Source: Escherichia coli (lineage in GTDB: Bacteria > Pseudomonadota > Gammaproteobacteria > Enterobacterales > Enterobacteriaceae). Taken from it: a stretch of 64,000 nucleotides of DNA. Position 1 is the stretch's first letter, and every line of letters starts with the position of its first letter. Where the stretch lies: NCBI RefSeq assembly GCF_003334785.1, contig NZ_QOWV01000008.1. One strand, 5' to 3'. The notes beneath the pieces were generated by a model. That model had not been told where the DNA came from. It ran no database searches and saw only the letters and a program-made list of their open reading frames with translations. The position numbers and the translations under genes are program-made. Positions 23,007 to 36,733 of this stretch are shown piece after piece.

Positions 23007-24653
23007 TCAGGATTTTTTCTTCTCGCGGCTATGCAGGCCACGTTTTTCCAGACCACGGTAAATCAGCTGCTGCTGAATAATGGTTACCAGGTTGCTGACG
23101 ATATAGTACAGCACCAGACCTGACGGGAACCACAGGAAGAACACGGTGAAGATGACCGGCATAAAGGTCATGATCTTCTGCTGCATCGGGTCGGTCACTG
23201 TGGTCGGCGACATCTTCTGAATGAAGAACATCGTTACGCCCATCAGGATCGGCAGGATGTAGTACGGGTCCTGTGCCGACAGGTCGTGGATCCACAGTGC
23301 AAACGGTGCCTGACGCAGTTCAACGGAACCCATCAGCATGTAGTACAACGCCAGGAAGATTGGCATCTGGATCAGCAGCGGGAAGCAGCCGCCCAGCGGG
23401 TTAACCTTCTCAGCTTTGTACAGCGCCATCATTTCCTGGCTGATACGCTGTTTGTCATCGCCCAGACGCTCACGCATTGCCTGAATCTTCGGCTGCAACA
23501 TACGCATCTTCGCCATGGAGGTGTACTGCGCTTTGGTCAGCGGGTACATGATGCCACGAACGATAAAGGTGATGATGATAATGGAGAAGCCCCAGTTACC
23601 CACAAAGCTATGGATCCATTTCAGCAGTTTGAACAGCGGCTGAGAGATGAACCACAACCAACCGTAATCAACGGTCAGATCCAGGTGCGGAGCAACAGCT
23701 GCCATTTTGTCCTGGATTTCCGGGCCAACCCACAGGGTGCTGTTCATCGCGCCAGTCTGACCAGGCTGAACCAGTACCGGCTGAGATTTATAGCCGATAG
23801 CGGCGATGCCGTTACCCAGATTAGCGGTATAGAAGTTGTTGGTACCGTCGTTATGCGGGATCCACGCCGTCGCGAAATACTGTTGCAGCATCGCCACCCA
23901 ACCACCTTTCGAAGAGATGTTCAGGTTTTCGTTATCGGCAATGGTATCGAACTTGTATTTCTCATACTTCTCGTCAGGCGTGGAGTACGCCGCGCCACGG
24001 AAGGTGTGCAGTGCGAAGTTGCTGCTTCCGGTATCGAGATGCGGTGGCAGAGTGATGGATTGCTTCAACTGACCAAACGAGGAGATTTCCAGCGGTTTCT
24101 CGCCAGCGTTCTGCACGTTGTAGTTGACGTTGACAGCGTAATCACCACGTTTCAGGACAAACGTTTTGGTAAACGTGTTGCCTGCCGCGTCGGTATACGT
24201 CATCGGCACCTGCAGTTCGTTTTGACCTTCAGCCAGCACATAAGCGTCTTTTTCAACGTTATACAGCGGACGCGGGCCGTTAGCCGGGTTATCCGGGCCA
24301 TCACGACCGGTCAGACCGCTCTGTGCCTGATAAATAAACTGCGGTGAAGTTTCCAACAGCTGGAACGGCTGGGTAGAGTTCAGCTCTTTCGGGTAAGCAG
24401 GCAGCAGAGCTTGCTCAACATCACCACCACGGGTGTTGATGGTCAGATCAAGCACGTCGGTCTTAACCGAGATCAGTTTCCCCTGGCCACTGGCCGGTAC
24501 GCCCTGGTCGGCGGCGCTACCCGCTGCGGTGGTCGTTGTCTGCGTGGTCTGTTGGGCCTGAGGTTGCGGGTTTTTATCCTGCTCCCAGGCTTGCCAGATC
24601 ATGAAAGACACGAACAGCAAAGCGATGACTAAAAGATTGCGTTGCGAATCCAT
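23007..24653 (-). CDS. yidC: Membrane protein insertase YidC
   Basis: 548-aa ORF. Confidence 0.97.
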
Positions 24654-33634: not shown

Positions 33635-34291
33635 TTATTGGTTTACTGCATATACAACCAGAAATTGCAGCGGTGCAGTAATGATGTCCAGCGTAACAGT
33701 CACTGGCAGTAATGCTGCGGAAACACCATCCGGAATGCCTCTGGGTGAATAGTATTCATAAAATCGCACTTTAAATGGATGGTAGAACGCCATCACCTTT
33801 GAGTAATCCATGTTTTTATTTTTCTCATGGATTGTGCCTTTTAGGTTTTCCAGTGACCTGGTACAGTGTTGAACACCACAGGCAAAACCATAATGCGTTG
33901 CCAGTGCCTTTTCTTCTTCGTTATTCCAGTAGTAGTAAAGCGATATTGTGCCGGTAAATTTCTTTTTCCCCGCATTTAAAACAAATCTTGCGTCATCGGC
34001 AACCTGAATATTGTGCCGGTTAAGTGCTGGATCATTGAGCATCTTAACGATGTCATCGGCACCATCAGTGATAAGGTAATCCAGCGATTCCCCTACAAAA
34101 ACATAGCCTTTTGTTCCATTACTATCTTTTGCCTGCGATAGCCCAGTGATGGTGTCTGACTGCGATTGATACTTTCCTGAACTACCCTTTGCGGTATGGG
34201 AAACCAGAGCATACGAGATACAGCCTGAAAGCATCAGCGCCAGTGGGAATAAACCGGCAACCTTAAAAAATCCCTTAAAATTCAACTTCAT
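33635..34291 (-). CDS. yidX: Putative lipoprotein YidX
   Basis: 218 aa from [24 protein letters not shown] (lipobox); the 257-aa ORF track entry includes an upstream extension. Confidence 0.85.
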
Positions 34292-34428
34292 GATTAATCC
34301 TTTAAACGAGTAGCTAAGCCGTTGAAAGCATACTCTTCTTTCCCTCCTGTTTAGCGCCTGATATCCCTTTTCAGATTTCTGCCCGACGCATGTCATTTTT
34401 TTATGCATTGTTCTTTTTGTGATCTAAA

Positions 34429-34502
34429 TTGTAGTACAACAATATAAGTTTGTACTACATTACACGCACGGCAAACGCGAACGTCATCACGCTGGTACTA
34501 CA
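34429..34502. promoter_or_regulatory. Putative DgoR operator: inverted repeats ttgtagtaca / tgtactaca plus a third gtactaca half-site
   Basis: Palindromic pair at 34429-34459 and extra half-site at 34495-34502, 65-140 bp upstream of dgoR. Confidence 0.5.
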
Positions 34503-34568
34503 AAGTTGCCGCGTTATGCATCGATCGGGGTAAAGTAGAGAAGAACATACAGAGCACAAGGACTCTCC

Positions 34569-35258
34569 ATGACTCTCAATAAAACCGATCGCATTGTCAT
34601 TACGCTGGGTAAACAGATCGTTCACGGCAAATACGTGCCAGGCTCGCCGCTTCCGGCTGAGGCGGAACTCTGTGAGGAGTTTGCAACCTCGCGCAACATC
34701 ATCCGTGAGGTGTTCCGTTCGCTGATGGCGAAGCGGCTGATTGAAATGAAACGTTATCGCGGGGCGTTTGTGGCACCGCGTAACCAGTGGAATTACCTCG
34801 ACACTGACGTACTGCAATGGGTGCTGGAAAATGACTACGACCCACGGCTTATCAGTGCCATGAGCGAAGTGCGAAATCTGGTGGAACCGGCGATTGCCCG
34901 TTGGGCAGCAGAGCGCGCGACTTCCAGCGATCTGGCGCAGATTGAATCGGCGCTGAACGAGATGATTGCCAACAATCAGGACCGCGAAGCGTTTAACGAA
35001 GCGGATATTCGCTACCACGAGGCGGTGCTGCAGTCGGTGCATAACCCGGTGTTACAGCAACTTAGCATTGCGATCAGTTCGCTGCAGCGGGCGGTTTTTG
35101 AACGAACCTGGATGGGCGATGAGGCCAACATGCCGCAAACGCTCCAGGAACATAAGGCGCTGTTCGATGCGATACGACATCAGGACGGCGATGCGGCAGA
35201 GCAGGCGGCGCTTACCATGATCGCCAGCTCGACACGAAGGTTAAAGGAAATCACATGA
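34569..35258 (+). CDS. dgoR: GntR/FadR-family repressor DgoR
   Basis: 229-aa ORF with N-terminal HTH. Confidence 0.95.
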   Translation: MTLNKTDRIVITLGKQIVHGKYVPGSPLPAEAELCEEFATSRNIIREVFRSLMAKRLIEMKRYRGAFVAPRNQWNYLDTDVLQWVLENDYDPRLISAMSEVRNLVEPAIARWAAERATSSDLAQIESALNEMIANNQDREAFNEADIRYHEAVLQSVHNPVLQQLSIAISSLQRAVFERTWMGDEANMPQTLQEHKALFDAIRHQDGDAAEQAALTMIASSTRRLKEIT

Positions 35259-36132
35259 CAGCTCGCTACATCGCAATTGACTGGGGATCGACCAATCTGC
35301 GCGCCTGGCTTTATCAGGGCGACCACTGCCTGGAGAGCAGGCAATCAGAAGCAGGCGTCACGCGCCTGAACGGAAAATCTCCGGCTGCGGTGTTAGCAGA
35401 AGTCACGACCGACTGGCGTGAAGAGAAAACGCCAGTGGTAATGGCAGGAATGGTTGGCAGCAACGTCGGCTGGAAAGTTGCACCGTATTTATCTGTTCCT
35501 GCCTGTTTTTCGTCTATTGGCGAACAATTAACGTCAGTTGGCGACAATATCTGGATTATTCCCGGATTATGTGTCTCTCATGACGATACCACAATGTGAT
35601 GCGCGGCGAAGAAACACAATTGATCGGCGCGCGAGCTCTGGCTCCTTCCTCTCTTTATGTCATGCCCGGAACCCATTGCAAATGGGTGCAGGCCGATAGC
35701 CAGCAAATCAACGATTTTCGCACCGTGATGACCGGTGAATTACATCATTTACTGTTAAATCACTCATTGATTGGCGCAGGTTTGCCGCCGCAGGAAAACT
35801 CTGCCGATGCCTTCACAGCTGGCCTTGAGCGTGGTCTTAATACGCCCGCCATATTGCCGCAGCTTTTTGAAGTTCGCGCCTCGCATGTGCTGGGAACACT
35901 TCCCCGCGAACAGGTCAGCGAATTTCTCTCTGGTTTGTTGATTGGCGCAGAGGTCGCCAGTATGCGCGACTATGTGGCCCATCAACACGCCATCACCCTT
36001 GTCGCCGGAACATCGCTGACCGCGCGCTACCAGCAAGCCTTTCAGGCGATGGGTTGCGACGTGACGGCGGTGGCGGGCGACACGGCATTTCAGGCTGGTA
36101 TAAGGAGCATCGCTCATGCAGTGGCAAACTAA
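35255..36132 (+). pseudogene. dgoK: 2-dehydro-3-deoxygalactonokinase dgoK, split by an apparent -1 frameshift near 35585-35598
   Basis: Two overlapping ORFs (35255..35599 and 35596..36132) in different frames together span 878 nt; one added base would give a single 292-codon ORF. Confidence 0.7.
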
Positions 36133-36733
36133 ACTCCCGCTGATCGCCATTTTGCGCGGTATTACGCCCGACGAGGCGCTGGCGCATGTTGGCGCGGTGA
36201 TTGACGCCGGGTTCGACGCGGTTGAAATCCCGCTGAATTCCCCACAATGGGAGCAAAGCATTCCCGCCATCGTTGATGCGTACGGCGACAAGGCGTTGAT
36301 TGGCGCAGGTACGGTACTGAAACCTGAACAGGTCGATGCGCTCGCCAGGATGAGCTGTCAGCTCATCGTTACGCCCAATATCCATAGTGAAGTGATCCGC
36401 CGTGCGGTGGGCTACGGCATGACCGTCTGCCCCGGCTGCGCGACGGCGACCGAAGCCTTTACCGCGCTCGAAGCGGGCGCGCAGGCGCTGAAAATATTTC
36501 CGTCATCGGCTTTTGGTCCGCAATACATCAAAGCGTTAAAAGCGGTATTGCCATCGGACATCGCAGTCTTTGCCGTTGGCGGCGTGACGCCAGAAAACCT
36601 GGCGCAGTGGATAGACGCAGGTTGTGCAGGGGCGGGCTTAGGCAGCGATCTCTATCGCGCCGGGCAATCCGTAGAGCGCACCGCGCAGCAGGCAGCAGCA
36701 TTTGTTAAGGCGTATCGAGAGGCAGTGCAATGA
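36116..36733 (+). CDS. dgoA: 2-dehydro-3-deoxy-6-phosphogalactonate aldolase DgoA
   Basis: 205-aa ORF, KDPG-aldolase family. Confidence 0.95.

Follow-up and report, generated by a model that had tools for sequence, protein, structure and literature searches.

The operators of the FadR subfamily of GntR regulators, as described for FadR, LldR, PdhR, GlcC and ExuR, follow the consensus TKGT-N3-ACMA, being A/T-rich palindromes in which GT and AC boxes are placed 3 nt apart, and the same TKGT/ACMA consensus with its 3-nt spacing has been named for DgoR (PMC4494728). In E. coli the operators of DgoR, those of Singh et al. 2019 (J Bacteriol 201:e00281-18) as cited in PMC11705089 and PMC12288454, are two inverted repeats, set close together and overlapping the dgo promoter, of which one is perfect and the other, IR2, has one mismatch (PMC11705089, PMC12288454). 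Each repeat is thought to bind one DgoR dimer, and the DNA is released in response to the effector, D-galactonate (PMC11705089, PMC12288454).

The picture obtained by Sort-Seq is similar. In Belliveau et al. 2018 (PMC6003448), a repressor footprint is placed at -140..-110 from the dgoR start codon, this footprint is lost both in a dgoR deletion strain and in D-galactonate, and a probe covering -145..-110 is reported to pull down DgoR. The same article (PMC6003448) describes a CRP site with TGTGA at -160..-140, called class II, a weak wild-type -10 element, TACATT, for the promoter here termed P1, and a further RNA polymerase site between -30 and -70, seen in glucose. A third element comes from comparative genomics: the S1 file (FadR sheet) of Suvorova, Korostelev and Gelfand 2015 (PLoS One 10:e0132618; PMC4494728) lists three E. 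coli sites under DgoR_ECO, including CACGCTGGTACTACAAAGTTG, and gives the equivalent three sites for E. fergusonii, Shigella, Salmonella, Klebsiella, Enterobacter, Cronobacter and Serratia. The experimental literature that we surveyed, up to 2025, treats two repeats only, and in it we found no binding or mutational experiment for the third site; a paper on P22 pid and the Salmonella dgo operon holds no operator information.

In this report we examine the dgo control region in a window of 64,000 nucleotides of E. coli DNA, this being the whole stretch analysed. A first-pass annotation had proposed an inverted-repeat pair with an additional half-site as DgoR operators upstream of dgoR, and had suggested that these elements, together with a frameshift in dgoK, may alter the repression or induction of the locus in this strain.

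The dgo locus and its control region

The window carries E. coli chromosome in the order gyrB, yidB, yidA, yidX, followed by dgoR, dgoK, dgoA, dgoD and dgoT, and the features that concern us are collected in Table 1. Comparison of 5 kb around the locus with K-12 yields only three differences, at 34260 in yidX, 35587 in dgoK and 36353 in dgoA, none of which lies in the control region; the 291 bases from 34290 to 34580 show 100% identity to K-12 MG1655. Since the control region and DgoR itself are both identical to their K-12 counterparts, the K-12 literature is directly applicable to this strain. In an NCBIfam search, DgoR matched models of GntR/FadR relatives, all under their cut-offs, and no DgoR-specific model was matched; the same search with the two dgoK fragments gave no match. 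The sites described below are thus adjoined by an intact GntR/FadR repressor gene, the arrangement expected for operators of DgoR.

Table 1. Features of the yidX-dgoR-dgoK region in window coordinates, with mean column conservation in the alignment of orthologous promoters
Feature	Position	Strand	Position from dgoR ATG	Remarks	Mean column conservation
yidX, divergent neighbour of dgoR	33635..34291	-		RefSeq annotation of identical locus	
yidX-dgoR intergenic region	34292-34568			dgoR ATG = 34569	
CRP site (class II) of inducible P1	34415..34436			TGTGA left half 34418-34422; right half is the TTGTA of IR1; 22-bp extent predicted from the CRP consensus	0.98 (TGTGA)
IR1, TTGTAGTACAA	34429-34439		-140..-130	0 mismatches (perfect)	0.99
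IR2, TTGTACTACAT	34450-34460		-119..-109	1 mismatch, last base	0.95
P1 -10 hexamer TACATT	34456-34461	+		inside/overlapping IR2; start placed near 34467-34468 from spacing	
Site 3, TGGTACTACAA	34493-34503		-76..-66	1 mismatch, position 2; predicted DgoR site	0.915
Conserved -10-like hexamer TAAAGT	34531-34536	+	-38..-33	in GGTAAAGTAG	
Spacers and upstream flank					0.56-0.60 (upstream flank: 0.56)
dgoR, GntR/FadR-family repressor, 229 aa	34569..35258	+		identical to K-12 DgoR, WP_000174305.1	
dgoK pseudogene	35255..36132	+		1-bp deletion at 35587, stop 35597-35599	

Overall, we hold with high confidence that the locus has the usual control region of the E. coli dgoRKADT operon, with site 3 as a likely auxiliary operator. 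None of the three sites is new: IR1 and IR2 have been established by experiment, and site 3 has been published as a prediction.

Three palindromes and their promoter setting

The strings picked out by the first-pass annotation, ttgtagtaca at 34429-34438, tgtactaca at 34451-34459 and gtactaca at 34495-34502, are exact, and the repeats that they form are real. The units, however, are not an inverted-repeat pair accompanied by a half-site but three separate palindromes of 11 bp with the common form TTGTA-N-TACAA, the third being a whole site; in the K-12 literature, too, IR1 and IR2 are each an inverted repeat of their own, whereas the annotation had taken them for one pair. A repeat search recovers a 10-nt inverted pair with 100% complementarity (34430-39 and 34450-59), an exact 8-nt direct repeat, GTACTACA (34452-59 and 34495-502), and a 9-nt pair, again 100% complementary (34429-37 and 34495-503), and since each unit is itself palindromic, every pairing of them appears in direct as well as in inverted orientation. 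The GT and AC cores are kept in all three E. coli sites, in agreement with the DgoR operator motif.

For IR1 and IR2 the proposal that DgoR operators lie in the dgoR promoter region is borne out, the two repeats being equal to the published operators in sequence and position. Window positions 34424-34445 match in 22/22 bases the IR1 oligonucleotide CTAAATTGTAGTACAACAATAT used for E. coli DgoR (PMC11705089), and together the two repeats span -140..-109, essentially equal to the published -140..-110 footprint; compared with IR1 and IR2 of K-12 dgoRKADT, there is no difference in sequence, position or context. Direct binding of DgoR, released by D-galactonate, is published for this region (PMC11705089, PMC6003448, PMC12288454). 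The apparent KD reported for DgoR is ~0.5 uM. Identity with an experimentally used operator holds for IR1 and IR2 only, site 3 lying outside the tested probes, which are a 55-nt fragment with the two repeats and the -145..-110 fragment. DgoR resembles the FadR subfamily in having one dimer per palindrome and sites that overlap core promoter elements, and differs from the subfamily generally in its own motif, TTGTA-N-TACAA, and in the presence of three in-phase sites at 21 and 43 bp.

The clustering of the sites is far beyond chance. Allowing at most one mismatch, TTGTANTACAA occurs 4 times in the 64-kb window against 1.58 expected, a count that on its own is not significant, but 3 of these 4 occurrences fall within 75 bp; three within 75 bp were seen in 0/1000 first-order Markov simulations, the analytic expectation being ~2e-6 per window. 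Likewise, a weight matrix trained on IR1 and IR2 of non-Escherichia species only ranks the three sites 1st, 2nd and 4th among 63,990 window positions, with a score for site 3 of 14.8 bits and the next lower score in the window at 9.95. The sites are centred at 34434, 34455 and 34498, and their separations of 21, 43 and 64 bp correspond to ~2, 4 and 6 helical turns, which puts all three on one face of the helix.

Elsewhere in the window, ATGTAGTACAA at 23338-23348 is one mismatch from the DgoR consensus and scores 18.1 bits with the DgoR matrix; it sits inside a minus-strand ORF of 548 aa (23007-24653), and we regard the match as fortuitous.

Around the palindromes, promoter positions were taken from the literature and from conservation. 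Given the -10 hexamer of P1 and the start predicted from it, the CRP site would be centred at ~-41.5 to -42.5 of P1, and IR1 overlaps both its right half and the -35 region. IR2 doubles as the -10 hexamer, which explains its single mismatch; 79/79 promoters show no variation at T-113, A-112 and T-108. Further downstream the hexamer TAAAGT, conserved at every position in 76-79 of 79 Enterobacterales promoters, is probably the -10 element of the downstream RNA polymerase site, which we call P2 and which could supply basal expression of dgoR. A generic scan of 34290-34580 for sigma-70 promoters and terminators gave no match, the scan being too strict for a -10 element as weak as TACATT.

Three further observations concern this stretch. 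One is a GATC inside the CRP site (34421-34424), whose A stands at -147 from the dgoR ATG; the Salmonella dgoR promoter has a hemimethylated GATC at the same position, where Dam methylation affects the heterogeneity between ON and OFF states (PMC7708049), and the E. coli variant TCM3e1 has GATT in its place. Another is a TTGT at 34408-34411 (-161..-158), of which G-159 is found in 79/79 promoters and the flanking T's in 70-73 of 79, and which precedes the TTGT of IR1 by exactly 21 bp and the TTGT of IR2 by 42 bp. The E. coli copy amounts to a half-site only, TTGTTCTTTTT; it may serve P1 as an alpha-CTD/UP contact, belong to the promoter of the divergent yidX, or be a fourth half-site for DgoR. 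The last is a direct repeat, TTATGCATTGTTC and TTATGCATCGATC, at 34401-34413 and 34514-34526, 113 bp apart, which flanks the operator cluster and is probably due to chance, its second copy being poorly conserved across species.

Conservation across Enterobacterales and the composition of site 3

The first-pass annotation had named conservation in orthologous promoters as a check on its proposal, and in some 80 species the proposal passes that check. We compared 80 dgoR loci from different Enterobacterales species and calculated column conservation from an alignment of 79 distinct promoters. The three sites stand out as conserved islands amid variable flanks, and their positions are kept (Table 1). 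IR1 is perfect in 74-75 of the 80 loci, and the start-to-start spacing between IR1 and IR2 is 21 bp in 79/80 by automated assignment, the remaining locus, L076, also showing 21 bp on reading. Between IR2 and site 3 the spacing is 43 bp in 71 of the 80 loci, 42 bp in 6 and 44 bp in 2-3. Similarly, in five divergent promoter variants of E. coli and in E. whittamii all three 11-mers are unchanged and the spacers vary. One locus of the Pectobacteriaceae, L081, has two recognisable sites only, and Pectobacterium likewise appears with two sites in the 2015 table of Suvorova et al. (PMC4494728).

Departures from this arrangement were also seen. Among 5,426 complete E. coli genomes, ~400 gave no match to the dgo promoter segment, and in the three lowest-ranked records (two of them O157:H7; e.g. 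NZ_CP017442.1) homology to a 2-kb query ends at position 222, equivalent to window position 34421 inside the CRP site; in these three records dgoR and its promoter have apparently been lost or replaced. In Shigella flexneri SF3769, IR1 is given as TTGTAGCGCAA in the S1 file (PMC4494728), with two substitutions in a right half that otherwise hardly varies; the operator may be decaying in that lineage.

Site 3 itself, which is the CACGCTGGTACTACAAAGTTG of the 2015 prediction, is placed at ~+26..+36 of P1 and adjoins the downstream RNA polymerase site; it stops 3 bp short of a conserved TTG/TG at -63..-61 and is centred ~45 bp upstream of the predicted P2 start. The 2015 entry is a computational prediction, to which the present comparison adds 80 species, data on spacing and column conservation, and the result that site 3 is imperfect throughout: a perfect copy occurs in 0/80 species, there is one mismatch in 67/80, at either position 2 or position 8, and there are at most two in 77/80. 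The conserved columns read T.GTA.T.CAA, and the variation is concentrated at position 2 (T in 61, A in 12 and G in 5 of 79 promoters) and position 8 (G in 44, T in 19 and A in 16 of 79), such that the right half is without the AC core, invariant in IR1 and IR2, in 63/79 species. Because of this missing core the affinity of site 3 may be low.

The two halves do not vary independently of each other. A perfect left half is combined with a mismatched right half in 61/80 species, and the reverse pattern, a mismatched left half with a perfect right half, is found in 16/80, including E. coli, Salmonella, several Citrobacter and the Klebsiella oxytoca group; in 3/80 both halves are mismatched. The coupling between positions 2 and 8 is strong by Fisher's test (p = 3.6e-14, not corrected for phylogeny), and a neighbour-joining tree with Fitch parsimony, in itself a crude control, requires ~10 state changes at these positions, so that the coupled pattern is not the effect of a single clade. 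Allowing for the weakness of this control for phylogeny, we take the pattern as a sign of selection that maintains the site yet keeps it weaker than the consensus.

It is possible, at somewhat less than an even chance in our estimation, that site 3 is a working third operator of DgoR, held by selection below the consensus and in helical phase with IR1 and IR2, its single mismatch having moved several times from one half-site to the other, and that it may tune autoregulation at P2 or block P1. At P2, a site centred at about -45 could repress or activate; FadR, for example, activates at fabA. Auxiliary operators are familiar from lac, where O1 is accompanied by O2 and O3, and from gal, with OE and OI. 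By way of analogy only, the dgo arrangement is similar in that a strong promoter operator is combined with a weaker, conserved site downstream, within the transcribed region and in phase with it. A difference is that DgoR is reported to be a dimer and not a tetramer, and a loop of 43-64 bp would be very short.

Alternative readings and the proposed mechanism

Among the alternatives the best placed, though in our judgement unlikely, is that site 3 is conserved as a part of P2, as a UP-like or extended -35 contact, or as the target of another protein, its likeness to a DgoR site being incidental. Its proximity to the conserved TTG/TG and to the predicted P2 start, in or next to the -30..-70 polymerase site, fits such a role, as does the G or T found at position 8, the A of the AC core, in 63/79 species. 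The Sort-Seq text (PMC6003448) and the Reg-Seq paper are in keeping with it too, since neither mentions a repressor feature at site 3; in Sort-Seq the stretch -76..-66 was among those mutagenised, which counts against a DgoR operator there, and the later Reg-Seq paper regards the sites of dgoR as fully discovered. Against this, it is the columns of the DgoR motif that are conserved in site 3, whose distance from IR2 is fixed, and the exchange between its halves, in which a degenerate right half goes with a perfect left TTGTA and vice versa, fits a protein target composed of two half-sites better than a fixed promoter element. An independent comparative study, moreover, assigned the site to DgoR (PMC4494728).

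The first-pass annotation had further suggested that the operators and the dgoK frameshift together may change repression or induction of the locus in this strain, for which we find no support. The frameshift itself is real: alignment to K-12 shows the loss of one A (GATAACC to GATACC), which splits dgoK into ORFs 35255-35599 and 35596-36132, and in the identical RefSeq genome LR-64-2 dgoK is annotated 'frameshifted'. Identity of 100% over 34200-36200 is found in 4 complete E. coli genomes among the matches listed. The deletion lies in a two-base run and not in a long homopolymer, which makes a sequencing artefact less likely. With the frameshift, growth on D-galactonate should be lost, and the premature stop could by polarity lower dgoA, dgoD and dgoT and hence the uptake of inducer, a conjecture that is the only route we see to altered regulation. 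Speaking against that suggestion are the identity of operators, promoter and DgoR to those of K-12, none of the three differences in 5 kb falling in the control region, and the nature of the effector, which is D-galactonate itself and thus stands upstream of the DgoK step (PMC11705089, PMC12288454). We consider a change of regulation in this strain improbable, more so than a promoter role for site 3.

Finally, a role of the three repeats as RNA, in a structured leader or a small RNA, is rejected as scarcely credible: site 3 would lie inside the predicted P1 leader of ~100 nt, but IR1 and most of IR2 precede the start site, no stable hairpin can be made from a palindrome of 11 bp whose centre is 1 nt, an Rfam search of 34250-34650 with E up to 1 gave no match, and the leader (34468-34575) folds no better than shuffled sequences (z = +0.43; 129/200 shuffles fold at least as well).

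Returning to the three palindromes as protein-binding DNA, the following mechanism can be proposed, in which the part concerning IR1 and IR2 follows the literature. Two DgoR dimers occupy IR1 and IR2, the centres of which are two helical turns apart. The left half of IR1 is common to the CRP site, IR1 covers the -35 region of P1 and IR2 its -10 TACATT, and from these overlaps it follows that bound DgoR excludes both CRP and RNA polymerase from P1; on binding D-galactonate, DgoR frees the DNA. Site 3, on the same face of the helix, 43 bp past IR2 and 64 bp past IR1 in the stretch that P1 transcribes early, most likely serves DgoR as an auxiliary operator of lower affinity, and may reinforce repression of P1 or limit DgoR's own basal synthesis from a weakly constitutive P2. 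In this strain the regulatory parts, both cis and trans, are those of the wild type, and the dgoK frameshift should block catabolism and not regulation.

D-galactonate use has been linked to gut colonisation by E. coli. In the regulation of this pathway, the two-repeat model employed in recent biochemistry and simulation of DgoR leaves out site 3, despite its conservation across Enterobacterales and its prediction in 2015. Should DgoR bind site 3, a third site would have to be built into quantitative models both of the dgo promoter and of autoregulation by DgoR.
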